NCBI GenBank assembly: GCA_964604715.1
Contig: CAZRZR010000002.1
Span: 1 to 48,279 of the forward strand
Source of the DNA: Candidatus Woesearchaeota archaeon
Lineage (GTDB): Archaea; Nanobdellota; Nanobdellia; Pacearchaeales; GW2011-AR1
DNA length: 48,279 nucleotides
Direction: 5' to 3'
Part shown: positions 12,443-35,580 of the stretch, one piece after another
Layout: each line of letters opens with the position of its first letter
Numbering within the stretch: the first letter of the stretch is position 1
The notes under the pieces: generated by a model
Told to the model about the DNA's origin: nothing
The model's database searches: none
Seen by the model: only the letters and a program-made list of their open reading frames with translations
Made by a program: the position numbers and the translations under genes

Positions 12443-12465
12443 TAGTGTAATTGTCAAGTTACAAC

Positions 12466-14115: not shown

Positions 14116-14149
14116 ACACCTTTTTTAACTATCCTTTAGTGGATGAGTA

Positions 14150-15356: not shown

Positions 15357-15391
15357 ACGCTATAAGGTATCATTCGACTTTTAAACTTTTC

Positions 15392-15928
15392 CTAACTTAT
15401 TCCGAAGAATCTATAGAGGAATGCTTCTACAGCTAATGAATCTCCATCGATAAATACGCACGAATCATTAACATATACTCTGTTTGTCTTACTTGGAGTC
15501 CAAACGATAAGTACATCTGCGCATGTTTTTTCAGGCAAGCTCTGATCTTCACATGCCCCGTAGCAAGCTTGTTGTACTCTCTCTGCCTGGGTGCTTGCTG
15601 CTGCGGCAATCTGCTGAAAAACAGCAATGTCGCTTGCAGCAATATATACAGGTTTGTTTACATAGTCCTGGCCAGAGAAACTGCCTTCTATGGGCACTTG
15701 GCGAGTTTCATTAGTAGAGTGAATAAAACTGAATTGTACACCATTAGCGTTCACTATATGCGAGGAATCTTCTAAGTTCGTAGACCCAACACTATCTTTT
15801 GAGCCTATAAGTGAAAGAGCATAACCAAGGACGCTTCCAAACATAAGCAATACAAGTAAGACTCCTAGAATAACTTGCTTTCTCTTCTGTCCTTCTTCGC
15901 GCGAGCTTTCATTGCCTATTCGTTTCAT
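15392..15928 (-). CDS. N-terminally anchored extracytoplasmic protein, hypothetical
   Basis: 178 aa with TM VILGVLLVLLMFGSVLGYALSLIG, followed by a Cys-containing domain. It lies directly downstream of the S-layer gene. Confidence 0.65.
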   Translation of the reverse strand: MKRIGNESSREEGQKRKQVILGVLLVLLMFGSVLGYALSLIGSKDSVGSTNLEDSSHIVNANGVQFSFIHSTNETRQVPIEGSFSGQDYVNKPVYIAASDIAVFQQIAAAASTQAERVQQACYGACEDQSLPEKTCADVLIVWTPSKTNRVYVNDSCVFIDGDSLAVEAFLYRFFGIS

Positions 15929-15971
15929 CTAAAAACTTAGAGTTAAGCATTAAAAAAGCTTACGCTAAGAG

Positions 15972-16006
15972 ATAAAAAATAAAAGAAAAAGAAAAAAAAC
16001 AAAAAT
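15972..16006 (-). terminator. oligo-T terminator region after S-layer gene
   Basis: On the minus strand, just after the stop at 16012: TTTTTGTTTTTTTTCTTTTTCTTTTATTTTTT. Confidence 0.45.
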
Positions 16007-16011
16007 TGTCT

Positions 16012-18636: not shown

Positions 18637-18645
18637 TTTTTTCAA

Positions 18646-19019: not shown

Positions 19020-19379
19020 ATGGCATCAAAGACTAAAACACGCGAGATAACTCTGGTAGATGAGAAAGGCACATTCTCTTTATTGTTCAAAAGACTATAT
19101 GGGGAAAAAGAAGAGCTTAATTTCGAAGGTTTAGCGGCTCTTCGTGCCGTTCTTTCCAATGAAAAGGCGAGAATTATGCACACCATCAAAACCAAAAACC
19201 CTCTTTCAATATATCATCTTGCAAAATTGCTCGGAAGAGATTTTAAATCAGTAAATGAAGACATTAAGTTATTGCAGCGTTTTGGATTCATTGAATTAGT
19301 TTCTGAAAAAACGGGGAAAAGACAACGCTTGAGACCTTTACTGAGCGTAGAGTCCATAAAGATAGAAATTAAGGTTTAA
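19020..19379 (+). CDS. winged-helix transcriptional regulator (HVO_A0114/antitoxin-like HTH family, tentative)
   Basis: 119 aa. LRAVLSNEKARIMHTIKTKNPLSIYHLAKLLGRDFKSVNEDIKLLQRFGFIELV...GKRQRLRP is a wHTH with a C-terminal beta hairpin. Its stop overlaps the stop of the convergent pilin-like gene by 4 nt. Confidence 0.65.
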   Translation: MASKTKTREITLVDEKGTFSLLFKRLYGEKEELNFEGLAALRAVLSNEKARIMHTIKTKNPLSIYHLAKLLGRDFKSVNEDIKLLQRFGFIELVSEKTGKRQRLRPLLSVESIKIEIKV

Positions 19380-19885
19380 GAGCATACTTCTAGTGTGGTG
19401 TGAATAGTGCCGCCCTCAGAAGGCTGAAGCTCACTAGCGCCCCGTAAGGTGCGTCCAGAGGTACAATTTCCATAACTAAAGGCCAGAATAGGCATCCTCT
19501 CAGTACTTCCATTATAAGGCCAGTAAGAAGAGCTAAAATTATATCCTACAAGAGGCCTATCTTGCCCTATATTCAACCCTTGTTTAATAAGCAAGGGTAA
19601 TGTTTCATTAAGAATTTGACAGGCTGATCTTTGATCTACACACGTACTTCCCTCTCTACATTCATTAAACAACTCCTTAACTCTTGCATGTTCTTGTGTT
19701 CTAAGACTACAATCTGTAGTATATTCTAGGGAACTTGCAAGGAATTGTTGTACTGTAACGCTCTTTCGAGTCTCAGGTGTAGAGTGTAGATTGAATGCGA
19801 GAAAAATAAGCATGACAATTGCAAGAAGTATCACTATAACTACAAATCCTACTATCTCTTCTTGTCCCTTTTTCATCGGTTTCAT
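19376..19885 (-). CDS. type IV pilin-like protein (class III signal peptide), P4
   Basis: The N-terminus MKPMKKGQEEIVGFVVIVILLAIVMLIF has a basic-Gly site then a hydrophobic helix. It has 6 Cys in the globular part. ATGA overlap with the upstream gene. Confidence 0.7.
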   Translation of the reverse strand: MKPMKKGQEEIVGFVVIVILLAIVMLIFLAFNLHSTPETRKSVTVQQFLASSLEYTTDCSLRTQEHARVKELFNECREGSTCVDQRSACQILNETLPLLIKQGLNIGQDRPLVGYNFSSSYWPYNGSTERMPILAFSYGNCTSGRTLRGASELQPSEGGTIHTTLEVCS

Positions 19886-20403
19886 GCCGAGTTTACTCCC
19901 ATAACAATCTTTCCTAACTCGCAGTGCGTCTCAGAGTAAATAGAATCAAATCTACATAAAGCAACGAACGCTTCTTCACTAGTATAATTGCTTTTTTTAT
20001 TTATCAGAGTTATTGTGTTACACGAAGGGTAATTTGCCCGAGTACATTCAATAGTCTTGTTATCAGAAGGATATACTTTCTTTATTTGTAGCTTTCCGAT
20101 GTTGTTCCCCCAAAATCCAGTGTAGCTTGTAATGTTTTTCAGGGCAAACACTTTATCTTCATCAACACAGCTTGCACAATCATCAACCGTCCAAGCAAAC
20201 TCAGGAGAGGCAGACATTTTTCTAACGAGTTCTTGGGCTTGCTCGTGACGTATGTCTGTTGCTGCAGACTTCAGTGAATTCAATTTGAAAGAAAAATAAA
20301 AAAGCGCCGCAAGTCCAAAAAGGAGTATAAATGCTACAAGTACAAAAGCCATCTGCTGTATCTTTAGCTGTCCTTTAGAAGAGCGGGCAAATAAGTTTTT
20401 CAT
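19882..20403 (-). CDS. type IV pilin-like protein (class III signal peptide), P3
   Basis: N-terminus MKNLFARSSKGQLKIQQMAFVLVAFILLFGLAALFYF. Cys-containing head domain. Overlaps the upstream gene by 29 nt. Confidence 0.65.
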   Translation of the reverse strand: MKNLFARSSKGQLKIQQMAFVLVAFILLFGLAALFYFSFKLNSLKSAATDIRHEQAQELVRKMSASPEFAWTVDDCASCVDEDKVFALKNITSYTGFWGNNIGKLQIKKVYPSDNKTIECTRANYPSCNTITLINKKSNYTSEEAFVALCRFDSIYSETHCELGKIVMGVNSA

Positions 20404-21304
20404 TTTGATTGGAAAGTTGTTCGGACTCTACGACGAGTGAACTCAATGCGATTCGATTATCTTTTAGATGAGCTGAGTAGGCTTGCAGTTCCGAAGCCAT
20501 GTTAGAAGAGCATCCTTGAGCCGAAAGGGCATTAGTTTTCCCAATATAGACTGATGCAAGTTCGTTAGCACGCTTTCTTAACCGAGTAAGTTGACAGTTG
20601 TATATATCAGGATCCGAGAAAATAGCAGAGTAGAGTAAAGGGCCGTAGTAATCTAAATTTTTCCTTTGGAGAGTGACTTTTCCAGACAAATCACTATTTT
20701 GAGAAACACTGACATTGCAACCAGTCCCAGAAAAACATACGCTTATGCTATCTTTCTTGCAACCAGTCTTGGTTTGACTAGTGCTAATAAGAGGCACGTT
20801 CCATGAGGCAATATCTGAAGCAACATCCTCAGGAGGTTGTACAAAACAATAGTCCTTATCTATGACAATAATCATATCTCCTATTTTATAAGGTAAATTA
20901 ACTGGCTGGACAATAAGATAAAATGCCTGTCCTTGAACTGTTTCTTGAGAGAAAATATACTTATTTGAAAAGCTTGCCGGAGTGCCTGCATCATTCCACG
21001 TTTTTCCAAACGAATTGCGGACGCTAACTTGTAATTGTTGTAAACCAAAAGTGCCTTCTACATTACATATATTCCTCAATCGCGTTTCATCGGGAAATAC
21101 TAGAGGGTATGTTTTACTCGTTTCTAGATTAGTTTCTACAGGATTAAGAATAACCCCCAATTGGGCTGCGACTTTAGTATTATACTCGCGTGAGCTTGTA
21201 TCAACAAGTTGCGTAGCGGTATAAACAGCAAGCGATATTATTGCTATACCTACAAACAAAGCAAAAATCCATGCAAAACTAAACTCAAATCCTTTGTGGT
21301 TCAT
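20375..21304 (-). CDS. type IV pilin-like protein (class III signal peptide), P2
   Basis: N-terminus MNHKGFEFSFAWIFALFVGIAIISLAVYTA. 309 aa with several Cys. ATGA overlap with the upstream gene. Confidence 0.7.
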   Translation of the reverse strand: MNHKGFEFSFAWIFALFVGIAIISLAVYTATQLVDTSSREYNTKVAAQLGVILNPVETNLETSKTYPLVFPDETRLRNICNVEGTFGLQQLQVSVRNSFGKTWNDAGTPASFSNKYIFSQETVQGQAFYLIVQPVNLPYKIGDMIIVIDKDYCFVQPPEDVASDIASWNVPLISTSQTKTGCKKDSISVCFSGTGCNVSVSQNSDLSGKVTLQRKNLDYYGPLLYSAIFSDPDIYNCQLTRLRKRANELASVYIGKTNALSAQGCSSNMASELQAYSAHLKDNRIALSSLVVESEQLSNQNEKLICPLF

Positions 21305-21777
21305 AGAGGTTTTAATAGCACGAGGCTATCTTCGCTGTTCTTCTCAAGCGAAACTGTTGCCTTGCCCTTACTTGTTTTTATGCAAAAGAACGTCGAAAAG
21401 CGCACGTGCTTAAGATTAGCATATTTGACACTACAAGAGGAAGGGGAAATATAATAGAAGAGATTTGCATCTCTTCCTTCATACCTTTTCAGGATATTAT
21501 ATTCTGGTTTATTCTTTGCCTGTGTTACATCGCCCATACAAATTTCATCCACTGATCCAGGAATAACTCCCGTAAATGTATCGTGCACGCTGTCAGAATT
21601 CCATGCATCGTCTATCTTGACCTGTAAATCTCTTGCATATAAACCTAATTCAGTGCATTGCTTGAGTTGTAAAAAATACCTTATTGCATACACTGCCGTT
21701 CCGAGTATTGCAGCAATAATAATAATCGAGAGTATCATTCCAAAAGAGAGCGATATATCTCCTTTTTTTCTCATCAT
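21301..21777 (-). CDS. type IV pilin-like protein (class III signal peptide), P1
   Basis: The N-terminus MMRKKGDISLSFGMILSIIIIAAILGTAVYA resembles the archaeal pilin QxSxExxxL-type motif region. It starts 3 nt after the stop of the 884-aa gene. Confidence 0.7.
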   Translation of the reverse strand: MMRKKGDISLSFGMILSIIIIAAILGTAVYAIRYFLQLKQCTELGLYARDLQVKIDDAWNSDSVHDTFTGVIPGSVDEICMGDVTQAKNKPEYNILKRYEGRDANLFYYISPSSCSVKYANLKHVRFSTFFCIKTSKGKATVSLEKNSEDSLVLLKPL

Positions 21778-21780
21778 CGT

Positions 21781-24435
21781 TTAGGTAAGCGTGGATGCTC
21801 CCACGACAATTGAACATGCATTAGGGCTTGGTTCGTTACCCCAGTCATCTCTACACTTAATGAAATAGCTTTGTTGTGGTTTCCAAGGTGTAGCGTGAAC
21901 GCCTCGCTCTTGCGAATTCAAAAGAAGCATATTAATTCCTTCTTCAAATACAAAATTACAGCTTGAAAGCGAATAAGAGCACTGAGCGTCTTCATTTGTT
22001 ACTAGCTTTAGTGCATCAGATTCTTTATACACACGAGTTACTTGAGGTGCAGATCTATCGGTTAATATTGTGAACGAGGTGTTCTTTTGATCAAGGTTTC
22101 CTCCTGCATCAATACATCTGAAGAAATACGTATAACTTCCACTAGGCAGGCTCAAGATTTGTTTGTGCTTCCAATCATTAGTTTCAAACATAGTAACATA
22201 ATCTCCTTCTTTTCCGGTCGGGCTAAAGTAACAGGTCGCCTTCCCTTCGTCTGCACCATCGTCAGTAGTCGCCGTAAGGTTAACTTGAACGATGGAGGTG
22301 CTCCCAGTAATTGTGCTATTAGGGCCAACTGCGAGTATAGAAAGGCTTTGTGTACCTTTGAGAGTAAATGCATAACTTTCCTGATTGGTATTTCTCTCGT
22401 TTTCAGGTTTTAATGGCTGATCTTTACAACGGAAGAAGAAAGCATTGTCTTCCTTGTCCTTTATGCCTCCAAGTGTCGTCGTACATGGATATAGTTGCTG
22501 TGCATTCTGTTGGTAGACGTGAGATGAACAGCTCATGTTATTTTCCATCAGGTCAAATCCCTTGTCTTGTTTGCTCCATTTACATTCAGAAGGTTCGTTT
22601 ACAAATAACGACAATGTGGTATTTTGTACACCAAACGTAACTGCGCTTCCTGAAGTTATTGATGTGCTCTCAATAACAGGAGGCGTACTATCTGGGCTCT
22701 TATCCACGCACATATTGAATACAAACTCATCTTCATTTACATTTCCATTTGCGTCACGACATCGTACATAGAAGTTGTACAATCCTTCAGAAGGTAATTC
22801 AGGAGATTCAGCAGTCACAGAATCGGGAGAAGGCAACCTTAATTTTTCAGTATGATTGTAAGCAAACAAATTGCTTTCTCCAAAGTAGAACTGCATTTCA
22901 TCAAATGTTTTGTTGCTTATAATATCTATTTTACATTGCGAAGGCTCATCTGTCCTCAAACCAAACTCTAATGCAGTGAATGGCTGTATACATCCGTCAG
23001 TAGATTGAGAATATTTTATTTGTGTTCCTCGCGAAGGTGGTCTGCCGCGCATATCCGTGTACACGTGTTTCTCAGTCAGCACTTCTTTCCAGGGAGTTAT
23101 CAATGGGGACTTGACGTCGTTTCGCGCAATCCAAACACAACGTTCTTGAGTCGTACCTTTATTGACAATATCACATGCTTGTCCTAAAGACTTACATCGA
23201 TACTCTGAACATGGCTTAAGAGGATCTTGATTACATCTCTCACAATCAGCTCCTCCAAGTGGTGCTTCCCAAGGCAAACATTGCAATGTAACTACTTTCT
23301 GTTTTTCTTTCTTGTATAAAAGAATAAACACGACTGCAGCTATACCAACACCAATTAATGCTGCCTGAGGCCCAGTAAGTGTCTGCGTCCATATTCTTTG
23401 ATTTCCTAAGGTGCCTGCACCTTTTCCAAACAATCCATAAATTGCCTGTCCGCCCATAATGCCTGCAAATGCTGCTGCACTTATCGCATTTGTCAGTTTA
23501 GAATCTCCCCCAAACAATGGAACAAGTAATTGTACTGCTCCCACAACAAGAAGAGACCACGTCAGCCCATCAGCTAAATGCCCCAAGAAAAATCCGGGAA
23601 CGTCAATTAATCCGAATAAGCTTCCTTGATATTCGCTTGTACCAACTGCTGATTTTATTAATGCCCCACTTTTCGTATCATAAACTTCCAAGGCCTTTCC
23701 ATCCTTGTCAAGCAGCGTCGTAGTGGTATCCGTTACTCTTACGTCAGCAACATTTTCAAAACCTGGCTTGCCTTGGATATCCTTCAAACTTTTTATGCTA
23801 CTTAAAGCCGGAGCTTCCTGGCCGAAGTGTGCATATTGGTAATCAGAAACTTGCGTCTTAGGAACATAATTAAGATCTCCGCCCTCTAGAGCTTTCTGAG
23901 CAGTGGCTTTATCTACAGGATAGAGGGTTCCTTTGGAATCTATAAGTCCAGCATCGGTATATTTTAACGTTGTACCGGTTGGAATTGTTGATGATCCCAC
24001 TTGAAGAGGTTTAGTTGTACTATACATATTTGTTGCACTATTAGGCGGGATAGGTCTTTTTGTAGAAAGAAGAGATGCTGCTTGAACTAAACCTCCGGCA
24101 GCCCCAACAGGATTAGTTTGTGGAGGAGGAGCAGTTCCAGAAACACTTGGCGCTTGCGATTGAGCAGAAATTGATTTCTGCGCTGCTTCTCGAGAGGTAA
24201 AGAATTTTCCACTTTGCAACTGTGCATCACTTGGCGTACCGCCAATATGTTCTGCGACATAAGGTTCTCCAGTAGTAGGGTCTGTTGTAGTGAAATAATA
24301 ATGTGTAGTATCGGCAGCAGAAACAATATTTGTTTGTCCAATAATAAATGAGATTGCTATAGTCGAAAGAACAATTAGGAAAATTTCACTTAATGCAGCG
24401 GAACGTAACACGTTTGAACCCTCTTTCGACATCAT
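21781..24435 (-). CDS. large modular surface/membrane protein G2 (Cys-free N-domain, Gly/Ala-rich TM block, four Cys-pair beta modules)
   Basis: 884 aa. The N-terminal anchor is RSAALSEIFLIVLSTIAISFIIG. The central hydrophobic Gly-rich block runs LLVVGAVQLLVPLFGG...AAAFAGIMGGQAIYGLFGKGAG...ALIGVGIAAVVFILLY. The C-terminal 520 aa are collinear with the C-terminus of 28343..32182 (TLQCLPWEAPLGGADCERC...FYVRCRDANGN...FFFRCKD...YFFRCIDAGGN...YFIKCRDDWGN). It has its own TATA, TTTATAAAT at 24454-24462. Confidence 0.8.
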   Translation of the reverse strand: MMSKEGSNVLRSAALSEIFLIVLSTIAISFIIGQTNIVSAADTTHYYFTTTDPTTGEPYVAEHIGGTPSDAQLQSGKFFTSREAAQKSISAQSQAPSVSGTAPPPQTNPVGAAGGLVQAASLLSTKRPIPPNSATNMYSTTKPLQVGSSTIPTGTTLKYTDAGLIDSKGTLYPVDKATAQKALEGGDLNYVPKTQVSDYQYAHFGQEAPALSSIKSLKDIQGKPGFENVADVRVTDTTTTLLDKDGKALEVYDTKSGALIKSAVGTSEYQGSLFGLIDVPGFFLGHLADGLTWSLLVVGAVQLLVPLFGGDSKLTNAISAAAFAGIMGGQAIYGLFGKGAGTLGNQRIWTQTLTGPQAALIGVGIAAVVFILLYKKEKQKVVTLQCLPWEAPLGGADCERCNQDPLKPCSEYRCKSLGQACDIVNKGTTQERCVWIARNDVKSPLITPWKEVLTEKHVYTDMRGRPPSRGTQIKYSQSTDGCIQPFTALEFGLRTDEPSQCKIDIISNKTFDEMQFYFGESNLFAYNHTEKLRLPSPDSVTAESPELPSEGLYNFYVRCRDANGNVNEDEFVFNMCVDKSPDSTPPVIESTSITSGSAVTFGVQNTTLSLFVNEPSECKWSKQDKGFDLMENNMSCSSHVYQQNAQQLYPCTTTLGGIKDKEDNAFFFRCKDQPLKPENERNTNQESYAFTLKGTQSLSILAVGPNSTITGSTSIVQVNLTATTDDGADEGKATCYFSPTGKEGDYVTMFETNDWKHKQILSLPSGSYTYFFRCIDAGGNLDQKNTSFTILTDRSAPQVTRVYKESDALKLVTNEDAQCSYSLSSCNFVFEEGINMLLLNSQERGVHATPWKPQQSYFIKCRDDWGNEPSPNACSIVVGASTLT

Positions 24436-24483
24436 TTAGTGAACAAATCTTTGTTTATAAATATTCTCGGTATCTATTCGTCG

Positions 24484-25125
24484 TCAAGGTTTGATAGAAA
24501 AATCGCTTTCTGCATAGGGTGCATTATTTGATCGCCATGTCGCTTTGTAATTCCCAGGTTGGAACTGCCTGCAATTATATATTAATATATGAAAGGAAGT
24601 GTCTATTGTAGCATTAACTGTGGACACATCTGTATGACTGTCAGTATTTGAAAGAGTAAATTTTATATCTCCAGGGTTAGTCTTGTTTATAGCAGGAATA
24701 TAAACGCCAATAGCAAGGTTTTCATTTCTAGAAAAATCCCTCTTAAGTCCTTTAATTTCTACAGCTGCGATAGCTCCATCCTTATCTTCATCAACCCATT
24801 CATTACAAACGAAACTGCGGCCATTTTGAGGAATAAATGCAGTTGAGCTTATAATCGGTGTTGGGGTGGTATATGAAGGCCCGTAAGCAAGAGCGTAATC
24901 GGGAACGTCAGAAGAAGATGAAGTAAGGGTAACGCTATCTCGTTCTGCACCTCGAGCCGCTTGAGCAACGCCAGCAGCAGATAGTATATCGCCCACTGGT
25001 CCTCCAATAGCTGCGCCACTAAGTATGGCCAATCCACCAGGTTTAGGTTTAGCAAATTCTTCACAACCAGTCAGACTTACTAGGCCAGCTAGTCCTGTCG
25101 CCATAAGACTCTTTCTGATATTCAT
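24484..25125 (-). CDS. putative lipoprotein with canonical EF-hand-type Ca2+ loop
   Basis: Lipobox-like LVSLTGCEE after MNIRKSLMATGLAG. DEDKDGAIAAVE (aa 112-123) fits DxDxDGxIxxxE exactly. A TATA-like ATATTTAAATAAT lies about 27 nt upstream. Confidence 0.7.
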   Translation of the reverse strand: MNIRKSLMATGLAGLVSLTGCEEFAKPKPGGLAILSGAAIGGPVGDILSAAGVAQAARGAERDSVTLTSSSSDVPDYALAYGPSYTTPTPIISSTAFIPQNGRSFVCNEWVDEDKDGAIAAVEIKGLKRDFSRNENLAIGVYIPAINKTNPGDIKFTLSNTDSHTDVSTVNATIDTSFHILIYNCRQFQPGNYKATWRSNNAPYAESDFSIKP

Positions 25126-25181
25126 ATCCTGCAGAGGAGTTCGTATTATTTAAATATTTCTGTTACTCTAGAATGGTAACT

Positions 25182-26009
25182 TTACTTGAGTTTACTCGTT
25201 CCATCAAATTCAGAACGCATGCGCTCAAGATCCTTTCGTTCTTGCTCAAGTCGTTGCTCGGTTTCTTCTATCTTTTCCTTCTTTTTTATGCGCTCAAGAT
25301 CTGCGCTAGCTTCTCTGATCTTCCTTTCCGCATCTTCAATTTTAGCTCGCATATCTTCCTTAGGTGCTGGTTGGTTAATAGCAGGCGATAGTCTCGGCAA
25401 ACTCTTTTGGGCAATAGACTCAGGATTGCTTGGAGCTTTTGGTGTTCCTCGAATCTTAGCTCGCACAGCAAATGAAGCAACAAGAAGACCTACAAGCAAT
25501 ACAGCGCCGATAAGATAATATTTATAACTGCCTAATCTCCCATTCTCCGACGTAGCAAAACCAGTAAGCCCTGGAGCAGTAGAATTGGTGCTCTCAAGGG
25601 TTGTTGAAGCAGTATTGTTGCTCTCGTTTACGTCTGAGCTAATATTTTGCTCCTTGTAAATGGCTGGTGCTTCAGCATCATGTTTTTTAGGTAATTGAAC
25701 ATAAATAGGTTCTCCAGCAGTGAACCCTCTGAATCGTTCATAGTAGGCTGTCTCACCGCCTATTTTAACATACACGGCAAGATCAAATTCTTCTTTATCC
25801 CCATTGTAAGTTACTGAAACGTTACCTGTATCGCCCGCAGGCAAGTCATAGAAACTCTGTACGGCGTAGTATGTATCTGCTGTTTCAAGAATAGAAACAG
25901 TCACTGTAACGCCTTGTAAGGTTTCAACATTAATTTGTGTGCTTGCGGCAACAGTAAAAGGGGTAATAAGAATGATTGCGAGCATCAACACTATTTTTTT
26001 ATTCATCAT
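25182..26009 (-). CDS. type I membrane protein: signal peptide, beta-rich ectodomain, S/T/N linker, TM, coiled-coil cytoplasmic tail
   Basis: Signal peptide MMNKKIVLMLAIILITPFTVAAS, TM YYLIGAVLLVGLLVASFAV, and tail EDMRAKIEDAERKIREASADLERIKKKEKIEETEQRLEQERKDLERMRSEF. Confidence 0.75.
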   Translation of the reverse strand: MMNKKIVLMLAIILITPFTVAASTQINVETLQGVTVTVSILETADTYYAVQSFYDLPAGDTGNVSVTYNGDKEEFDLAVYVKIGGETAYYERFRGFTAGEPIYVQLPKKHDAEAPAIYKEQNISSDVNESNNTASTTLESTNSTAPGLTGFATSENGRLGSYKYYLIGAVLLVGLLVASFAVRAKIRGTPKAPSNPESIAQKSLPRLSPAINQPAPKEDMRAKIEDAERKIREASADLERIKKKEKIEETEQRLEQERKDLERMRSEFDGTSKLK

Positions 26010-26049
26010 TTTCTAACTAAAGCCGTATTTTTAAATATTAACTTTTCAG

Positions 26050-27552
26050 CTAACCTCCGTTTATAGTTACTTGTAAGCTATTCTTGTATCCTTTTTTGCT
26101 CAGATAATTTACCTTTGAGCCACAATCCCCTAGGGCTTGACATACTTCTCCATACTTTGCTTCCCAGCCCGGTTGCAAACATTCGCAGTTCTCGGTACAT
26201 TCCTCTCCCCCTAGTAATCCTTTCTCAAATTTCACAACACATACTTTGTTTCCAGCTCCGCATACAATTTTAGATTCTTCACTATTCCAGAAAGCAAGCC
26301 CAGGAGAGTTTTTAGGCAAACATACTGCATTAATCGTCGCATTTCCTAAGGTAACTCCCTCTTTCCAGAAGCAGTCGCGTCTATCAGGGTTTTCGCAATC
26401 TTCTTCAGCTGTCTGGGCTAAGCAATCTTGCCACCGATTAACTCTACACGCTGCCTGTGAAAAGCTTCCTTCAGATGTTTGAATATCTTGTTGTACGCAT
26501 TCCTGTGCTCTAAAATCATCGCATGGTTCAGTTAATACTTCTCCATTCATGCAAATACGTCTGAAGAACCCGCTCCCAACTGTGCTTTTCCCAATAGAAT
26601 TCTTTTTATCATCTGCTATGCACCAGCTTTCTCCATGTTTTCTATCCTTGCCATTCTCATCGGTACAAGAAAGATCTGCACAAATAAGACTTCCAAAACG
26701 AGGTTTGGTTGCTCCAAGAGTCGTAGGCCTGCAATAACTTCCTAAAAGATAATTACAATTCCCGCAGCTTGCACTGTTGGCGTTTGCCGAACCAGGGCTG
26801 CAACTTTCAGATTTAGTTTTGACATTTGTCCAATAATCTTTATCATTTGTTTTTGAAGAGTCGTATATGTTAGCTGCATTTCCACATGTATCTGTATAAT
26901 AGATTTCATCTTTGCCCGGTAAACAAGTCGTTTTTGTGGATGGGCCACAAATGGTGCCTAGTTCTTCTGCAGAACAGAGTTTATCTTTGTAAAACGTACC
27001 AGCAGAGTCGCTTTTATTCAACCTTTCAGAACTACCGTCGCATTCGGCTCGCGTTGTAAATTTACATGTCTTTTGAAATTCGAACTCATATACGCAAGCA
27101 CCCCTGTCTTGTTGTTGAACAGTAGCAATACATGCAAGTTCATTAGATATTGTTTTATCATAATTTGTTTGTAGACCTAAGAATGAAGAAAGTTTTTTAC
27201 ATCGTACAAGTGATGTAAATGCTGCTTGATCGCCTAAAATACAACATCCAAGTTGACATTGGGGAGGCGTTTGCTCACTCCAAGTGCCTCCGTTATTATT
27301 ACATACAAGCTGTGGCGTATTATCTAAGCAAGTGCCTTCATTTGAGTCATAACAGGTGCCTGCTTTACAATAACTAGTAGATTCACAACTCGTTGGAACT
27401 TGACGTGAACTTGGATCGCACGCATCTGCAGGTACATTCTGACAAAAAGCGCCAGTCTTTGTCTTTTCACAACACACGGTAGCAGTCAGATCAGCAGCAC
27501 TAACAAAGCTTAGCAGGAGAATAAGAAACATAAGACCAAATAAATACCTCAT
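26050..27552 (-). CDS. secreted Cys-rich protein C1 (paralog of the N-terminal ectodomain of G1)
   Basis: Signal peptide MRYLFGLMFLILLLSFVSA (the ATG at 27552 forms an ATGA overlap with the upstream stop). About 50 Cys. Collinear matches to G1 include GCCILGDQAAF/GCCLIGNQALY, CGNCNYLLGSYC/CGNCNYLAGSVC, DLSCTDENGKDRKHGESWC/DLSCTDENGNKRKHGESWC and ACRVNRWQDC/ACRANQWQLC. No TM anchor. Confidence 0.85.
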   Translation of the reverse strand: MRYLFGLMFLILLLSFVSAADLTATVCCEKTKTGAFCQNVPADACDPSSRQVPTSCESTSYCKAGTCYDSNEGTCLDNTPQLVCNNNGGTWSEQTPPQCQLGCCILGDQAAFTSLVRCKKLSSFLGLQTNYDKTISNELACIATVQQQDRGACVYEFEFQKTCKFTTRAECDGSSERLNKSDSAGTFYKDKLCSAEELGTICGPSTKTTCLPGKDEIYYTDTCGNAANIYDSSKTNDKDYWTNVKTKSESCSPGSANANSASCGNCNYLLGSYCRPTTLGATKPRFGSLICADLSCTDENGKDRKHGESWCIADDKKNSIGKSTVGSGFFRRICMNGEVLTEPCDDFRAQECVQQDIQTSEGSFSQAACRVNRWQDCLAQTAEEDCENPDRRDCFWKEGVTLGNATINAVCLPKNSPGLAFWNSEESKIVCGAGNKVCVVKFEKGLLGGEECTENCECLQPGWEAKYGEVCQALGDCGSKVNYLSKKGYKNSLQVTINGG

Positions 27553-28346
27553 GAAAGTACTCCATACCCTTGTGGCCAAACTAAACTTCGGGTTGCAAAT
27601 CTAAATTTTTCTTGGCTTATCACGTTTCTTAATGTGTATAACGTGTCATCGCCCTTTTTGAGCTTTTCTATAACGAGGTTTGGATAATATCTAACATATA
27701 ATGAAGTATCAGAATCTCCAAGCGTAGACTCAAATTGTACAATACTTAATGCAGTCGTTAATAAATCATAGCTTTGGCTTGGCAGTCTAACTACAAATTT
27801 ACTAAATGTCTGTTTGCTATCTTTTGAAATAGTCATCGCTGCGTTGACATCTACTATTACCGCTTCAGGCACAATACTGACGTTTACCGAAGGTTGAGCA
27901 ACCGTAACTTGATATCCTTTTTGTTCATAGTTCTGTTGTAAAGACTGAATACAATTGCGAGCAGTCTGCGTTAATCGCTGTTCTAATTGCTTTTCAACAT
28001 GTGAAACCAGTAACGGTTGTTGTACAAGACAAGGCTTATAATTTTCGCTTGTATAACAGAGATAAGAAAATTGTAAATCATTGTTAAGTACATAACTTGT
28101 CGGGGTATAGTCGCCTCCGTGTTCCATAATAATAGGTAACGCTTTTTTTAGTTCTGGTTCTATACATTGGCGTACATAGCTTGAAGGGTCGACTTCATTG
28201 GTAAAGACAGTCAAATTAGGTCGCACCAAGAACCAAATCACTGCTGCAATAATTACAACAGCGACAATTACGAATATCGCAACTTGACCTCTTTTTTGCA
28301 TACTTTCAAAAGATCTAGTTTGTTTATAACGTTTTCTAGATATCAT
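27549..28346 (-). CDS. type IV pilin-like protein (class III signal peptide), A2 (paralog of A1)
   Basis: The class III-like N-terminus is MQKRGQVAIFVIVAVVIIAAVIWFL. It is collinear with 32182..32937 (YLCYTSENYKPCLVQQP vs YLCKNINYYEPCINQYP, and so on). The ATG at 28346 forms an ATGA overlap with the G1 stop. Confidence 0.75.
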   Translation of the reverse strand: MISRKRYKQTRSFESMQKRGQVAIFVIVAVVIIAAVIWFLVRPNLTVFTNEVDPSSYVRQCIEPELKKALPIIMEHGGDYTPTSYVLNNDLQFSYLCYTSENYKPCLVQQPLLVSHVEKQLEQRLTQTARNCIQSLQQNYEQKGYQVTVAQPSVNVSIVPEAVIVDVNAAMTISKDSKQTFSKFVVRLPSQSYDLLTTALSIVQFESTLGDSDTSLYVRYYPNLVIEKLKKGDDTLYTLRNVISQEKFRFATRSLVWPQGYGVLS

Positions 28347-31300
28347 GTTATCCTCGCTTGCTGTACACTTATGCATGCACTAGGATTATTGAAAACATCT
28401 TTACAAATAATATAATGTTTGACATCTGCCGCAAAGTTGCTCGTGTGTGTTAATTCCTGTCCTTGCATTAGCGTTCCATTTGCAAAATTGAAGCTACAGG
28501 AATTCAAACTAAATGCGCATTGGGATTTTTCATTGGTAATAATAGTTAGTCCGTTCAAATTGTATGCTCGGGTAATCATCGGCCCTTTATCGTCTACTAT
28601 CACACTAAATGAGGCGCTACCTCCTGCGTTGTTACCTGCAGCATCTTCACACGTTATTGGAATTGTATAATTGCCCTCAACAAATATATTCAGGTTTCTC
28701 TGTCTGTGCGTGTCTGCCCCAGTTTCAAAGAACAGCACTGATTGAGTTCCCCATTTGAAGGAACACGTCCTTGAGAGTTCAGGAACTCCTCCGCGCGTTA
28801 CCACTGTGAGATCTATTTTAGCAGGCAGCCCATTAGTGGAAATTATCTTTCCTTGAGGGTCTATAGAAACAATACTTAGTGGCGTTTGTGTCTTTCTCAG
28901 TACGTAACTTACACTCTGTTGATTTGCATTTCTTCCCGTCGCATTCTCCAAAAACGGTTGATCGTTGCAACGCACATAGAATGTTTTATCTCCAGTCGCA
29001 GGCGTAGGCAAGGTCATATTACATGGCCATCCCAGCAACGTAGACTCTGCAAGCTCTCCAGCACACGTCGCGTTATGCGTCATTGCATTGTAAGCAACGT
29101 CTTGTTCATTCCATCTACATTCCGCAGGCTCATTCAGAAAGAACTTTACGTTTTTCGAACTAGCGTTCAGCGAAACATATCCTGGACTTGCTGGACTAAA
29201 CCCACTTATTACAGGTGGAGTTCTATCAGGCTCAGGTGAGACGCAGAAGTTAATTGCATATTCTTGCACGTTCTTTCTTCCAGCAGCATCGGTACATCTA
29301 ACATACAAATTAACATTTCCGCTTTGATCAGGCTCAAATAGTTCGGGGTCAAATACTTCATCAGAAGCATGCTCTGCGTTTTCTGCATTCCGATTGTCGA
29401 TTGCCTGTTTGCTTGGAATAGTAAACGTCATAGTATGATTTTTTCTGAATAAGCTGCTTTGTATTCCTCCAGCTTGATGGAAGAAAGTATTCATATCATC
29501 ATAACTAGCTGTGTGTTTATTCGTCACCTTACATTGTGACAGTTCGTTTGTCGCAATACCCAGCCTTATCTGATTAAACACTGGAACACATCCATTTGGT
29601 TCCGAGCCTTGTAAATGATATCCCTGACCAGATACTTGAGTGTATTGATATCCGCCCAATAAAACAGACTTATCTTCGCTAATAATTGGAGGAGTGACAT
29701 CGTTAGGGCTTGAATCGACGCACTTCCCTTCAGCGCTATCATCGACAAAAGTACAACTTTGTCCTAAACTCTGACATTTATAGCGTGAGCACGGCAATCC
29801 ATCCGCTCCGCATTGAGTACACTTCGCTCCTCCCAAAGGCGGCTGCCATGCCATACACTGGAACGTTACCTTTGTCTCACTCTTCTTTCCTATGCCTAGG
29901 AATTTCAATACAAAAATAATTATTACAACTACTGCTACGATAATAAGCCCTATTCCTGTTGCAGCAAGACTTCCTGCAACCACGAGTGCTCCTCCATTTA
30001 CAAGTCCATATCCAATAAACGCTCCTCCAACAGCTCCCGCTGCGATCAATGCGTACGTTACTGCGGGAGGCAAACCTGCATCAATTCCTAATGCATGAAT
30101 AAGGTAAGCAGTTCCAGCGGCACCTATAAGTGCTCCAGCAGCTGCTCCTGCAAAAGCTCCTATTCCTGGACTTGCTGCACCTCCGCCTGCAAGGTTTGCC
30201 GCTTGTGTTGGGCCGACCGCTCCTGCTAGAGCAGTTGTATCAACTGCAGCAGCTGCTCCTGCAGAACCAATCCATCCAGCATACACAGCATATGCTAACA
30301 ATATTCCGCTTGCTCCGCTAATTTTAGCGAAGTTAGTCAGCATTTTTCCATAACTATTTTTAACATTTGGGTCTTGTAAATTTCCTATGAGACCATAAAG
30401 CGAAACAAGCTCGCTTTCATTTAGCGGCGACACATGTTGTCCTTCTTTTGGTGTAGTCAGTAGTTTAAGTGCGGCAATATAACTTTGTCCTACTTTAGGC
30501 GCGTTTGTAACGCGGTAACCGTCATCAGTAAAATCGCCTTCTATAGAAACTTTACCGCCACAATCGCCCATGCTCATGCACAAGTTATTCATAGCCTCGG
30601 TGAATGCAGCAGTCCTACATACTTTATTATATTCTGATTTTCCAAATAACTTTTTCACTTTCACGTATGTACATGGTGCAGTAGCCATACCACAAATTGT
30701 TTCGGCAACTTCTCCACCATTTGGAACGCCTAAATCAAATCCAGGAGGGTTGCGAGGAACGCATACGTTAAACGCAAACGTATCTTTTCCGCCAGAACGT
30801 AAATCAGTACCTTTCAATACGCAATCAGTATATTTGCTGCATTCTTTTTTTACTAGCTCAGCAGCAGTTCCAGGATCCGGAGCATCTTTACCTGCATCGT
30901 TTGCCTGCACACACAATTGCCATTGATTAGCGCGACATGCGGCAGAAGAAAACTTTGCTTGCTCGTCCCGTGACTCAACACATAAGCTATTTCTAGCTAC
31001 GCCGCAGGTTTCAGTTCTTACCTCTCCATTGATACACGATTTACGGTACTGCTCGCTTCCTGGCAAGTCAACACTTCTTTGTAAGTTTCCTAGACCTTGA
31101 ACACCAATCTGGCTGTCAAATGCACACCAACTCTCTCCGTGCTTGCGTTTATTACCGTTCTCATCGGTACAAGACAGATCTCTGCATACAAAATCTCCTA
31201 CAGAAGGTTTATCATCAATTCCCACACGCTGTGTACCACAAACACTTCCTGCTAAATAATTACAATTTCCACAGCTTGATTGTTTACTTAATGGATTTAA

Positions 31301-32182
31301 GCTAGTTCCCAACTCGCAACTCTGATTCTTTGCCAACACAATACCATTATTCCAACTTTGATCCTTATGAAGGGAGTCATAAATATTTTCTCGATTACCA
31401 CAACTATCAAACCAATATACTTCATCTTTACCGTCAACACACCCGGTACGCTTTTGTTTAACGCACGCAGTGCCTAGGCTAGGGTTTGAGCAAAGCATTC
31501 CTTTGTAAAAGTTACCGCTTAGAGTAGTGCACTGTTCTTTGGTAGTAAACTTGCAATTATTTTTATCAAAATCAACTGTTTCCAATACACAGGCTCCTTC
31601 TTCCCCTTTATTAGCCATCGCGATACATTGTAACTCGCTGTCGACGGGGGTAAATATAATAGGTTGCCCTAATCTATCTCTGAGTGTGTTACACTGCTGT
31701 TCCGTCTTGTAAAGTGCCTGATTTCCTATAAGGCAACAGCCTTCTCGACATTCAGTTATTTCACTTTTCTGACGAGCATCCCATGATCCTCCTTGTTGCT
31801 CACATGCAGCTTTTGGAGAATTCGGAGAACATGTCCCTTCAGTTGCATCTAAGCACGTTCCCAGTTTACATTCCGCAAAGTCTGCTCTCAATCCTGGAAA
31901 ACAACTGGTAGTACATAGGCTGTTACAGATCTGTGCTTGGTACTCTTGACATCGTGTACCATTTTTATCCAAGGCGCAAGTCCATAACCCTTCTTCAGCA
32001 GCAGAAACTAGGTTGCCTCCGAATACGTTAATGAACCCTGTTCTTATCTTTTGTATTAAGCTGCTTTCGCTCATTTCAGAATAAATCGGAATAATTTCTT
32101 GAGCGTCGCTTAAAATATAGGCAAAGGCAACGCTAGCACAAACAATCAAGAAGATTTCAAATAATGCAATGTTTTTCCTCAT
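28343..32182 (-). CDS. giant modular surface/membrane protein G1 (C1-like Cys-rich ectodomain + Gly/Ala-rich TM block + four Cys-pair beta modules)
   Basis: About 1279 aa from the ATG at 32182 (TAATG overlap with the A1 stop). The N-terminal anchor RKNIALFEIFLIVCASVAFAYIL shares ALxEIFLIV with G2. Roughly aa 70-560 are paralogous to C1. The central block is ILLAYAVYAGWIGSAGAAAA...GAFAGAAAGALIGAAGTAYLIHALG...LIIVAVVVIIIFVL. The C-terminal ~500 aa are paralogous to G2. Confidence 0.85.
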   Translation of the reverse strand: MRKNIALFEIFLIVCASVAFAYILSDAQEIIPIYSEMSESSLIQKIRTGFINVFGGNLVSAAEEGLWTCALDKNGTRCQEYQAQICNSLCTTSCFPGLRADFAECKLGTCLDATEGTCSPNSPKAACEQQGGSWDARQKSEITECREGCCLIGNQALYKTEQQCNTLRDRLGQPIIFTPVDSELQCIAMANKGEEGACVLETVDFDKNNCKFTTKEQCTTLSGNFYKGMLCSNPSLGTACVKQKRTGCVDGKDEVYWFDSCGNRENIYDSLHKDQSWNNGIVLAKNQSCELGTSLNPLSKQSSCGNCNYLAGSVCGTQRVGIDDKPSVGDFVCRDLSCTDENGNKRKHGESWCAFDSQIGVQGLGNLQRSVDLPGSEQYRKSCINGEVRTETCGVARNSLCVESRDEQAKFSSAACRANQWQLCVQANDAGKDAPDPGTAAELVKKECSKYTDCVLKGTDLRSGGKDTFAFNVCVPRNPPGFDLGVPNGGEVAETICGMATAPCTYVKVKKLFGKSEYNKVCRTAAFTEAMNNLCMSMGDCGGKVSIEGDFTDDGYRVTNAPKVGQSYIAALKLLTTPKEGQHVSPLNESELVSLYGLIGNLQDPNVKNSYGKMLTNFAKISGASGILLAYAVYAGWIGSAGAAAAVDTTALAGAVGPTQAANLAGGGAASPGIGAFAGAAAGALIGAAGTAYLIHALGIDAGLPPAVTYALIAAGAVGGAFIGYGLVNGGALVVAGSLAATGIGLIIVAVVVIIIFVLKFLGIGKKSETKVTFQCMAWQPPLGGAKCTQCGADGLPCSRYKCQSLGQSCTFVDDSAEGKCVDSSPNDVTPPIISEDKSVLLGGYQYTQVSGQGYHLQGSEPNGCVPVFNQIRLGIATNELSQCKVTNKHTASYDDMNTFFHQAGGIQSSLFRKNHTMTFTIPSKQAIDNRNAENAEHASDEVFDPELFEPDQSGNVNLYVRCTDAAGRKNVQEYAINFCVSPEPDRTPPVISGFSPASPGYVSLNASSKNVKFFLNEPAECRWNEQDVAYNAMTHNATCAGELAESTLLGWPCNMTLPTPATGDKTFYVRCNDQPFLENATGRNANQQSVSYVLRKTQTPLSIVSIDPQGKIISTNGLPAKIDLTVVTRGGVPELSRTCSFKWGTQSVLFFETGADTHRQRNLNIFVEGNYTIPITCEDAAGNNAGGSASFSVIVDDKGPMITRAYNLNGLTIITNEKSQCAFSLNSCSFNFANGTLMQGQELTHTSNFAADVKHYIICKDVFNNPSACISVQQARIT

Positions 32183-32937
32183 TAGAATCCTGCAGGCAAT
32201 GCACACCCCCGTATAGCGATATTCATCACGTTCTCTGTCGGTATATGTTTGATAGTATAAACCTTTGTGCTGTCAGAAAACGTTTTGAGTTTAATATTAA
32301 AGTCGGAATAAATAAGACTATAGCCGACGTACTCAAAATAACAATACTGAGCTTCCTGAGAAGCTATTTCCTGCGCTACCGATCCCAAGTCATAAACCGG
32401 GCTTCGTACAAAATTTGAAAATTGATCATATGTCTTAGTCTCGCTGCTTTTCGTAGCTTTAAGATGTGCAGGTACTCGAGCCTCAACGATTCCTGGTTTA
32501 AGAATAAGTTGTACTGGTTCAGCACTCATAGACACATCATAATTTCTTTTTTCCAGCTCGCTTTTTAACGTGCTAATGCATCCAGCAACGTCATCTTTCA
32601 CAGCGCCAGAAAGTTCTTGTTGAAGGTGAGTAATATAGCGAGGGTATTGATTAATGCAAGGCTCATAATAATTTATATTTTTACAAAGATAAGTCGCCTT
32701 TACGTTCTCACTTAATTTATAGTCGGTAGGATCTATCAAGCCGCCTTGTTCAAGTAAAAGCGGAGCCTTATCATTAATTGCTTTTTTCACGCAGCTGTCC
32801 ATGTATTGCTCAGAATCAAATCCTTGTGCAAAAGAGATAATTGGCTTATCTTGCCTTAAGAATAAAGCTAATCCTATCCCAATAACAAGAATGATTGCCA
32901 CAATAACGAATATGGCCATCTGTCCTTTCTTATTCAT
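32182..32937 (-). CDS. type IV pilin-like protein (class III signal peptide), A1
   Basis: N-terminus MNKKGQMAIFVIVAIILVIGIGLALFL. 251 aa with 6 Cys. Its start overlaps the RHH gene end by 8 nt. Confidence 0.75.
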   Translation of the reverse strand: MNKKGQMAIFVIVAIILVIGIGLALFLRQDKPIISFAQGFDSEQYMDSCVKKAINDKAPLLLEQGGLIDPTDYKLSENVKATYLCKNINYYEPCINQYPRYITHLQQELSGAVKDDVAGCISTLKSELEKRNYDVSMSAEPVQLILKPGIVEARVPAHLKATKSSETKTYDQFSNFVRSPVYDLGSVAQEIASQEAQYCYFEYVGYSLIYSDFNIKLKTFSDSTKVYTIKHIPTENVMNIAIRGCALPAGF

Positions 32938-33073
32938 TTTTATCCTCCATAATGAATCTCTTGAGGGCTTCTTCTATAATATGAGACTTATTACGATGTT
33001 TTCCTTTTTTTAGAATTTTTTCTAGTCCTTGATCAGTTATTGGATCTATAGTCGCGGAAATTCTTATTTTCAC
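32930..33073 (-). CDS. ribbon-helix-helix (CopG/Arc-like) DNA-binding protein; small ORF absent from the supplied track
   Basis: My translation (GTG start) is VKIRISATIDPITDQGLEKILKKGKHRNKSHIIEEALKRFIMEDKNE, 47 aa. It shows an N-terminal beta strand (KIRISATID) followed by two helices with the typical S-H-IIEEAL pattern. It is the first gene of the cluster. Confidence 0.6.
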   Translation of the reverse strand: MKIRISATIDPITDQGLEKILKKGKHRNKSHIIEEALKRFIMEDKNE

Positions 33074-33112
33074 ATATTACTTTATAATACTAAGTATTTA
33101 AAAGTTTACAAA

Positions 33113-35558: not shown

Positions 35559-35560
35559 AT
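35551..35560 (+). promoter_or_regulatory. TATA box of 35581 gene, embedded in the last primase codons
   Basis: CTTTATAAAT contains the primase TAA stop. Its centre is about 26 nt upstream of the ATG at 35581. Confidence 0.4.
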
Positions 35561-35580
35561 GCGTATCTCGTATGAATTCC

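Follow-up and report, generated by a model that had tools for sequence, protein, structure and literature searches.

A conserved gene cluster of Pacearchaeota encoding prepilin-type proteins and giant cysteine-rich envelope proteins

The window analyzed here, 48,279 nucleotides of contig CAZRZR010000002.1 from a Candidatus Woesearchaeota archaeon (assembly GCA_964604715.1; order Pacearchaeales in GTDB), carries twelve consecutive co-oriented genes on the minus strand at positions 19376-33073. We tentatively read their products, at odds that we place a little short of even, as an undescribed Pacearchaeota-wide envelope or adhesion apparatus related to type IV filaments, in which four small proteins (P1 to P4) would be minor-pilin-like, A1 and A2 would act as adaptors, and the giant proteins G1 and G2 would present arrays of immunoglobulin (Ig)-like domains. 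We favor this reading because of six class III (prepilin-type) N-termini, gene fusions in which C1 plus G2 equals G1, a conserved gene order, the adhesin-like composition and fold of the giant proteins, a secretion-type ATPase gene beside P1 in one lineage, the precedent of archaeal type IV pilus loci that hold several minor pilins and large adhesin-like proteins (PMC4858521), and the unusually strong host attachment reported for Pacearchaeota (PMC7906910). The prepilin signal, and perhaps the machinery, would be of the type IV kind already known, while all structural parts appear to represent undescribed families; the literature on Pacearchaeota pili, pilins, and Cys-rich surface proteins yielded no description of the cluster or its families.

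An initial annotation, made from the sequence alone, had proposed the twelve genes and their sizes, and the open reading frames (ORFs), overlaps, and paralogies found here agree with it. In order of transcription, with lengths in amino acids (aa), the genes are as follows.

32931-33073, minus strand: RHH (CopG-type) regulator, 47 aa, GTG start at 33073; first gene of the proposed transcription unit 1
32182-32937, minus strand: A1, 251 aa; predicted class III signal MNKKG|QMAIFVIVA..., disulfide-stabilized alpha/beta ectodomain
28343-32182, minus strand: G1, 1279 aa; predicted signal/anchor, Cys-rich head, Gly/Ala-rich membrane segment, Ig/cadherin-like array
27549-28346 (alternative start 28301), minus strand: A2, paralogue of A1; predicted class III signal ..MQKRG|QVAIFVIVA
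26050-27552, minus strand: C1, 500 aa from MRYLF; predicted secreted, Cys-rich, Sec signal ...SFVSA|A; corresponds to the G1 head as a stand-alone protein
25182-26009, minus strand: type I membrane protein with a charged coiled-coil tail; lineage-specific insert
24484-25125, minus strand: lipoprotein with lipobox LTGC and a DxDxDG EF-hand-like loop DEDKDGAIAAVE
21781-24435, minus strand: G2, 884 aa; predicted signal, variable Ser/Thr/Pro-rich region, hydrophobic segment at aa 281-374, Ig/cadherin-like array at aa 386-884
21301-21777, minus strand: P1, 158 aa; pilin-like, MMRKKG|DISLSFGMIL
20375-21304, minus strand: P2, 309 aa; pilin-like, MNHKG|FEFSFAWIF, 8 invariant Cys
19882-20403, minus strand: P3, 173 aa; pilin-like, ..SSKG|QLKIQQMAF
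19376-19885, minus strand: P4, 169 aa; pilin-like, MKPMKKG|QEEIVGF; Q+1, E+3, G+6, and four Cys invariant

Six proteins share a prepilin-type N-terminus

Residues flanking the first hydrophobic stretch were taken from every orthologue of the six small and medium proteins (75 for A1, 72 for A2, 26 for P1, 22 for P2, 21 for P3, and 20 for P4). All six families keep a short basic leader with Gly, Ala, or Ser at position -1, followed by an N-terminal hydrophobic stretch of ~20 residues. Every A1 (75/75) and A2 (72/72) orthologue has [KR][G/A/S]-Q and then directly (V/I/M)(A/T)I(F/W)(V/I)I. The corresponding patterns are [KR][GA]-Q(L/M)K(I/M)QQMAF for P3, [KR][GA]-QEE(I/M)(V/I)GF for P4 (Q, E, and G invariant), [KR][GAS]-Q/F/D..S(F/L)(G/S)F for P1, and [KR][GA]-(F/Y/L)E(F/V)SF(A/T)W for P2. 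The Gln at +1 is invariant in A1, A2, P3, and P4 and occurs in most P1 orthologues; P2 has Phe, Tyr, Ile, or Leu there. At the level of sequence, the N-termini with +1 Gln have the same form as the EppA processing sites of the Methanococcus maripaludis Epd pilins, which were mapped experimentally to KGQV, KGQL, KGQI, and RAQI (PMC4371748).

Profile-profile comparison indicates that the families share just their first ~50 residues, in a pilin-like pattern. With N-terminal profiles alone (hhalign), the pairs A1-P4, P1-P2, and P3-A2 score 87 to 97%, the P1-P2 pair reaching 97%, versus at most 29% between the six N-termini and the Sec signal peptides of neighboring secreted proteins. The initial annotation had called the six proteins pilin-like, and their prepilin-type N-termini, kept over 20 to 75 orthologues per family, are indeed distinct from ordinary signals. 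Besides the six cluster proteins, a lenient scan for [KR][GAS] plus a hydrophobic stretch over all ORFs of the window picked up G2 and four generic ORFs, of which two encode ordinary signal peptides, one is a multi-pass membrane ORF, and one runs antisense. The P2 family profile has no relative among PDB sequences. Sequence comparison thus supports a targeting or processing N-terminus as the signature shared with prepilins, and does not support membership of a described pilin family.

A conserved Glu/Gln in the hydrophobic stretch of G1 and G2 had raised the possibility that these are giant pilins. We dropped this idea because their N-termini, which are homologous to each other (98%), group with the Sec signals and not with the pilin-like set, and carry no class III signal.

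The giant protein G1 combines a Cys-rich head with a predicted Ig/cadherin-like array

Alignment with orthologues places the true start of G1 at MRKNIALFEI (window 32182). By sequence, G1 is a C1-like head joined to a G2-like body: residues 77-565 are 36% identical to C1 (E 7e-78), and residues 660-1280 are 33% identical to residues 260-874 of G2 (E 6e-93). The cluster therefore holds two paralogous sets, A1+G1 and A2+C1+G2, a reading with independent support. Giants of ~1230 to 1270 aa in four related loci (L053, L071, L074, and L077) score higher with C1 than with the G1 head and far higher with the G2 C-terminus than with that of G1, and are therefore separate, independent C1.G2 fusions. 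The parts of G1 are as follows.

30383-31945, minus strand: head domain, aa 80-600; paralogue of C1, 39 conserved Cys
29900-30361, minus strand: Gly/Ala-rich hydrophobic segment, aa 608-761; one strong and two or three weak predicted helices
28346-29857, minus strand: C-terminal domain, aa 776-1279; Cys knot and four or five predicted beta-sandwich domains, homologue of the G2 C-terminus

A total of 459 G1 homologues were detected. Among the 120 matches listed, nearly all are full-length (~1200 to 1390 aa) with 35 to 97% identity, all derive from metagenome-assembled genomes of Pacearchaeota, Woesearchaeota, or Nanoarchaeota, and all are hypothetical or unnamed save one labeled "Yip1 family." The claim of the initial annotation that the large proteins belong to no named family holds in Pfam, NCBIfam, and PDB profile searches, which gave no assignment; the G1 family profile found nothing in the PDB. 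Scans of all twelve proteins against Pfam and NCBIfam gave nothing over cut-off besides the RHH regulator, and Pfam Big_13 stays below its cut-off of 27 bits in both G2 (24.8 bits) and G1 (20.0 bits).

An AlphaFold2 model of G1 residues 80-1279, built from 98 sequences, has a mean predicted local distance difference test (pLDDT) score of 85.1. It predicts a mixed alpha/beta head with good confidence, then a Gly/Ala-rich segment that is poorly ordered and contains four helical stretches, and finally a confident all-beta C-half; no cytoplasmic domain is seen in the model. The top Foldseek matches in the PDB are CELSR1, C-cadherin, protocadherins, desmogleins, KIT, contactin, and the Deinococcus HPI S-layer protein, at E values of ~5e-10 to 1e-7, template modeling (TM) scores of at most 0.31, and ~10% identity. 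Ig arrays dominate this list, and the matches concern the C-terminal array and not the N-terminal head. The Ig/cadherin resemblance predicted by the model is one of fold class and not a family assignment. No Pfam match to the PilY1 C-terminal beta-propeller, vWA, or DUF2341 was found in G1, G2, or C1. The initial annotation had compared the giants with PilY1-type tip adhesins; that comparison is not upheld, and G1 and G2 appear instead as membrane-embedded proteins with Ig/cadherin-like arrays.

Sixty Cys of G1 reach at least 90% conservation. The head contains 39 of them; the other 21 lie in the C-half, where an initial knot of seven is followed by groups of two and four along the domain. The C-half also has two N-glycosylation sequons that are ~70% conserved, and the C-halves of both G1 and G2 are low in Lys+Glu and high in Ser+Thr+Asn, like the secreted and unlike the cytoplasmic proteins of the window. 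The paired Cys, the sequons, and the secreted-like composition argue that both large domains of G1 lie outside the cell. Among the helices of the G1 family, just the last is strongly hydrophobic, and the first stretch is weak and charged. Judged by hydropathy, the positive-inside rule, and composition, G1 and G2 are putative membrane-embedded, array-displaying proteins that may cross the membrane once or more.

Three further observations concern the giants. An invariant Val-Ser-Ala lies at window ~31976-31984 (aa 67-69 in the numbering of a 1287-aa ORF), ~50 residues past the N-terminal hydrophobic segment of G1 and just before the head; the same VSA|A-type motif closes the signals of G2 (aa ~36-42) and C1, and in G1 it looks like a retained signal-peptidase I site. 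The G1 head has an insertion hotspot after a GESWCA motif (window ~31100; alignment columns 440-600), with 0 to ~150 lineage-specific residues, and the C-terminal array has another (alignment columns 1430-1500). The N-terminal region of G2 varies widely in length, and the whole protein ranges from 671 to 1003 aa.

These features also bear on a quite different reading, which we regard as improbable, in which the cluster encodes a host-contact conduit. Glycine-zipper-like helices would let G1 and G2 oligomerize into a channel where symbiont and host meet, the heads and A1/A2 would bind the host envelope, and P1 to P4 would form a piercing or priming stem, allowing the uptake of host material. 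Gly/Ala-rich helices of the GxxxG type are conserved in G1 and G2, and the hypervariable insertion site of the head and the variable N-region of G2 fit a role in partner recognition. Pacearchaeota have been reported to be unusually strongly host-attached and to have a minimal metabolism, and pili-like appendages that seemingly penetrate hosts have been seen on ultrasmall cells (PMC7906910). Against this, the oligomerization and the pore are purely inferred, a single strongly hydrophobic helix is present, and no cytoplasmic domain is available to gate or energize transport. If true, it would describe the host-contact machine of a major DPANN lineage and a new class of intercellular apparatus that borrows just the prepilin targeting signal; the Ig arrays would set the intercellular spacing, and the symbiont would gain lipids and metabolites.

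A1 and A2 carry a predicted globular domain without a solved relative

A1 and A2 are paralogues (26% identity, E 9e-27; hhalign 100%), and six Cys are invariant in the A1 family. The A family is large: in a set of 1.84 billion representatives, 530 clusters match at E<=1e-30, and the number grows to 5470 at E<=1e-3. In the AlphaFold2 prediction for A1 (109 sequences, pLDDT 91.8), residues 3-27 form a membrane helix and residues 32-37 a linker of low confidence, and a compact alpha/beta domain follows. Foldseek gave no significant match for this model in the PDB (best E 4e-3, TM 0.12) and no meaningful match among the BFVD viral models (TM <=0.24), and the A1 family sequence profile has no relative in the PDB. 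The term pilin-like used by the initial annotation accordingly stands for the class III N-termini of the six proteins and fails for the confidently modeled A1 ectodomain, which has no pilin fold.

The public gene call for A1 (protein P0121, 245 aa) begins at an internal Met (window 32919-32937), losing the conserved MNKKGQ leader, and automatic annotation therefore hides the class III signal of this family.

The gene order is conserved in two separable modules

A scan of one genome per GTDB species recovered 436 stretches encoding a relative, and we take the order A1-G1-A2-C1-lipoprotein-G2 to be kept in over 400 species genomes. For the synteny analysis, ORFs were called in 77 non-redundant loci and classed by hidden Markov models built from the window proteins. 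Immediately upstream of G1, 66 of 73 loci carry an A-type gene; A2 comes next after G1 in 63 of 67, C1 or a fused giant then follows in 58 of 59, and G2 or a fused giant is found within 10 kb in 43 of 49. Some lineages have a single set, either A2-C1-G2 or an A2-type gene with a fused giant. The RHH gene precedes A1 in ~35 of the 77 loci; its product scores 19.9 bits with Pfam RHH_1 against a cut-off of 20.5, and the orthologue in locus L038 passes at 22.1 bits.

The genes occur in two genomic contexts. One is that of the window, PCNA-(RHH)-A1...G2-P1-P4-HTH-S-layer; the other has different housekeeping flanks and no P1-P4 after G2, with the order of the first block kept. Conversely, in locus L085 and ~15 loci from a metagenome scan with the P2 profile, the genes ahead of P1-P4 are unrelated ones, RNase J for example. 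The two blocks therefore represent separate conserved modules, which chance to lie side by side in this genome: module I, (RHH)-A1-G1-A2-C1-lipoprotein-G2, and module II, P1-P4. The initial annotation had drawn a single cluster; the gene order it proposed is conserved in both contexts, while the single unit gives way to two modules, with the coiled-coil membrane protein as a lineage-specific insert in the first. It had also named three points on which it could fail, and on these the large proteins fall in no known family, the N-termini differ from ordinary signals and keep a conserved candidate cleavage site, and the order is conserved.

No orthologue of the coiled-coil membrane protein was found among the 77 loci. 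Where genes intervene between C1 and G2, most loci have at least one fast-evolving lipoprotein there, and the DxDxDG calcium-type loop is kept in 9 of 19 recognizable relatives of the window lipoprotein. Toxin-antitoxin-like pairs (PemK/MazE, or a nucleotidyltransferase-like protein with a small partner gene) have been inserted repeatedly in or beside the cluster in different lineages, at L003:8359-8917, in the C1-G2 gaps of L041, L045, L080, L081, and L083, and at L084:11423-12414.

Conserved order might arise where the rigid gene order of a small genome holds unrelated secreted and membrane proteins together, and the surrounding housekeeping genes (PCNA, primase, and two secreted-protein genes) are also syntenic in many loci. 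We consider it highly improbable that the cluster lacks a common function because of the C1.G2 fusions, which have occurred repeatedly and, with the paralogous pairs A1-G1 and A2-C1, indicate functional coupling, and because module I is found in the same order in another genomic setting, unrelated to the first. The overlaps of start and stop codons and the presence of one rare N-terminal motif in six proteins also speak against a chance assembly.

An ATPase gene in one lineage, and a possible S-layer scaffold

Motor genes were sought by motif scans (PilB/FlaI Walker box and A24 GxGD motifs) over the ORFs of ~150 related loci, ±10 kb each. One was found: locus L112 (7489-9318, minus strand) encodes a 609-aa T2SSE-family ATPase (PF00437, E 2.7e-109), 183 nucleotides (nt) from P1 (L112:9502) and divergently transcribed. 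It is of the bacterial GspE/PilB/PilF type, with an E value of 8e-89 to Vibrio GspE and a tetracysteine motif. An assembly artifact is unlikely because the protein has been deposited as a Pacearchaeota sequence (MBS3071638.1) and is present on 13 contigs; the gene may be a horizontal acquisition. Its other neighbors, a trypsin-like protease and an RNase P subunit, are unrelated to pili. The finding shows that at least one member of the lineage owns a PilB/GspE-type ATPase, with its gene beside P1-P4; one case in ~150 is weak evidence.

Module II has two constant neighbors, which in the window are as follows.

19020-19379, plus strand: HTH protein of the HVO_A0114 family, convergent with P4 (Pfam PF25212, 64.5 bits)
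16012-18645, minus strand: S-layer-like protein, 877 aa (Pfam S_layer_C, E 8.5e-9)

Several results weigh against an apparatus related to type IV filaments. The window holds no secretion or pilus ATPase, platform protein, or A24 prepilin peptidase, in line with the initial annotation, and the flanks of the ~150 related loci gave no motor gene or peptidase by motif scan save the L112 ATPase, which is itself bacterial-type and has no PilC partner or platform gene. The motif scan of the window revealed no candidate major pilin, curated pilin and class III models of Pfam and NCBIfam match no window protein at E<=0.1, and no pilin model or consistent family emerged when 87 P-family orthologues were scanned against Pfam. 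In the A1 model, the linker parts the helix from the alpha/beta domain, unlike in a pilin fold, which has one long unbroken N-terminal helix packed on a beta-sheet or Ig-like head. Nearly all long loci have P1-P4 followed by the opposite-strand HVO_A0114-type HTH gene and then the S-layer gene, so P1-P4 go with the S-layer gene rather than with module I. With respect to membrane topology, about three Lys/Arg follow the last helix of G1 and G2, and G2 has no stretch aligned to the weak first helix of G1.

Much of this would be expected of an envelope or S-layer scaffold without a filament, an alternative that we hold to be less probable than the filament-related apparatus and on balance unlikely. 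The prepilin-like N-termini would be plain membrane anchors, or the proteins would resemble the S-layer-binding FlaF/FlaG; P1-P4, A1/A2, and the G1/G2 arrays would form pillars or an anchor lattice that keeps a constant spacing between the membrane and the S-layer protein, which has no anchor of its own. The 877-aa S-layer-like protein has a signal peptide and no C-terminal membrane segment, P1-P4 stand beside the HTH and S-layer genes in most long loci and have unrelated housekeeping genes in place of module I upstream in ~15, and the Deinococcus HPI S-layer protein is among the Foldseek matches of G1. Linked motor genes are lacking, the A1 fold is not that of a pilin, and the cluster is near-universal and single-copy in the lineage, as core envelope architecture would be. 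On the other side, the invariant Gln at +1 and Glu at +2/+3 right after Gly/Ala form a peptidase-processing signature that a plain anchor would not need, module I also occurs far from the S-layer gene, and a PilB-type ATPase lies beside P1 in one lineage.

Comparison with known systems

The closest likeness is to the Epd pili of M. maripaludis and the euryarchaeal type IV pilus loci. The cluster shares with the EppA-dependent Epd pili the processing motif [KR][GA]|Q[VIL] with its obligatory +1 Gln, and with these loci the presence of several small pilin-like genes per operon and large surface proteins alongside (Makarova et al. 2016); an S-layer-like gene is also often near the euryarchaeal loci. 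It differs in having no linked ATPase, TadC-like platform, or EppA gene. The large proteins lack a DUF2341 or PilY-like domain and appear membrane-embedded with a Cys-rich head and an Ig array, the predicted A1/A2 ectodomain has no pilin fold, and no Pfam pilin model matches.

Among bacterial systems, the minor-pilin modules FimU-PilVWX-PilY1 of type IVa pili and GspH-I-J-K of type II secretion likewise have four small pilin-like proteins encoded by overlapping genes in fixed order, one of them far larger (P2, 309 aa, in the cluster), beside very large proteins. P2 has a bacterial-looking G|FEFSF N-terminus, and one lineage has the bacterial-type PilB/GspE ATPase beside P1. However, no sequence or profile similarity is found, and the giants are not beta-propeller/vWA proteins like PilY1 and cannot leave the membrane; the likeness is one of logic only.

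Non-pilin globular domains on prepilin-type N-termini, embedded in the envelope as proposed for A1/A2, are also seen in the Sulfolobus bindosome, whose sugar-binding proteins have class III signals, and in the archaellum proteins FlaF/FlaG, of which FlaF interacts with the S-layer. A1 and A2 are homologous neither to substrate-binding proteins nor to the beta-sandwich of FlaF/FlaG, and no archaellum or Bas genes are nearby. The bindosome subunits are PibD substrates (PMC4371748). The C-halves of G1 and G2, with four or five predicted tandem beta-sandwich domains, resemble adhesins built of cadherin or Ig arrays and S-layer proteins with Ig domains. The resemblance is at the fold level only; those families have neither the disulfide pattern nor the Cys knot, and they lack the Gly-rich membrane segment.

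Transcription units and genomic surroundings

The genes of the cluster are tightly packed. The junctions are an 8-nt overlap (RHH/A1), TAATG (A1/G1), ATGA (A2/C1, P1/P2, and P3/P4), a spacer of 3 nt (G2/P1), and a 29-nt overlap (P2/P3); G1/A2 is ATGA with the A2 start MISRK and a 41-nt gap with the start nearer the conserved leader. The translational coupling described by the initial annotation is thus present, at G1/A2 depending on the A2 start. TATA-like boxes, read by the position rule for archaeal promoters, were found at the following sites.

33095-33103, minus strand: TTTTAAATA, ~26 nt upstream of the RHH start
26026-26035, minus strand: box of the coiled-coil membrane protein
25147-25154, minus strand: box of the lipoprotein
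24454-24461, minus strand: box upstream of G2

The same A/T-rich box (AATATTTAAA/TTTATAAA) lies 26 to 29 nt upstream of all four starts, which suggests four transcription units with little or no leader, among them RHH-A1-G1-A2-C1 as one leaderless transcript.

The rest of the window is core genome, with genes for FtsZ, SepF, ribosomal proteins L1/L10/L11, NusG, PCNA, primase, and S-layer-like and other secreted proteins. FtsZ (6912-7997, plus strand) and SepF (11539-11922, plus strand) lie 7 to 12 kb from the cluster, and no sign of a functional link was seen. Two secreted proteins of 623 aa (35542-37413, plus strand; ~5% Cys) and 400 aa (37454-38656, plus strand) adjoin the primase gene; neither has a Pfam match, and both share synteny with the cluster across many loci. 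Small membrane proteins downstream of the S-layer-like gene (12451-18645) keep their order in most loci, and the same conserved set includes a 554-aa NPCBM_assoc/MG2-like surface protein (14150-15928). The whole stretch between ~12 kb and 33 kb behaves like an island of envelope genes.

Base composition is even over the region. At 29000-32000, inside the G1 gene, guanine-plus-cytosine (GC) content reaches 0.44, compared with ~0.39 in the background, and the GC skew is strongly negative; the higher content may reflect the Gly/Ala-rich segment of G1, and gives no evidence of foreign DNA. We rejected a mobile-element or viral origin because of the uniform composition, the core-gene neighbors, and the lineage-wide synteny.

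A model for the apparatus and its implications

Taking the filament-related apparatus as the favored reading, we hypothesize that module I encodes two paralogous surface complexes, each composed of A1 or A2 as the class III-signal protein, the G1 N-domain or C1 as the disulfide-rich head, and the G1 C-half or G2 as the membrane-embedded Ig/cadherin-array protein, and that module II encodes a set of four small pilin-like proteins analogous to minor pilins. A prepilin peptidase encoded elsewhere would cut off the short basic leader, and the freed hydrophobic N-terminal helices would pack P1-P4 and A1/A2 into a short pilus or pseudopilus stem, assembled by a secretion-type ATPase and platform also encoded elsewhere. 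A1 and A2 would link the Cys-rich heads to this stem, while G1 and G2 would remain in the membrane and display their adhesive Ig arrays, the whole set mediating cell-cell or cell-surface attachment. The attachment or contact role, which the initial annotation had also suggested, is inferred from the domain types and from the literature on the lifestyle of the lineage.

In groundwater and sediments, the tiny and probably host-attached Pacearchaeota belong to the most abundant DPANN archaea and also to the least understood. We know of no cultivated member and of no attachment genes known for the lineage. The cluster is near-universal there and its families are large, with members annotated as hypothetical or unnamed. 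It yields concrete candidates, namely six predicted prepilin-peptidase substrates, two giant putative Ig-array membrane proteins, and one secreted Cys-rich head. The equivalence of C1 plus G2 to G1 provides a Rosetta-stone argument on which parts bind each other, and A1/A2 would add at least one confidently predicted fold without a solved relative.

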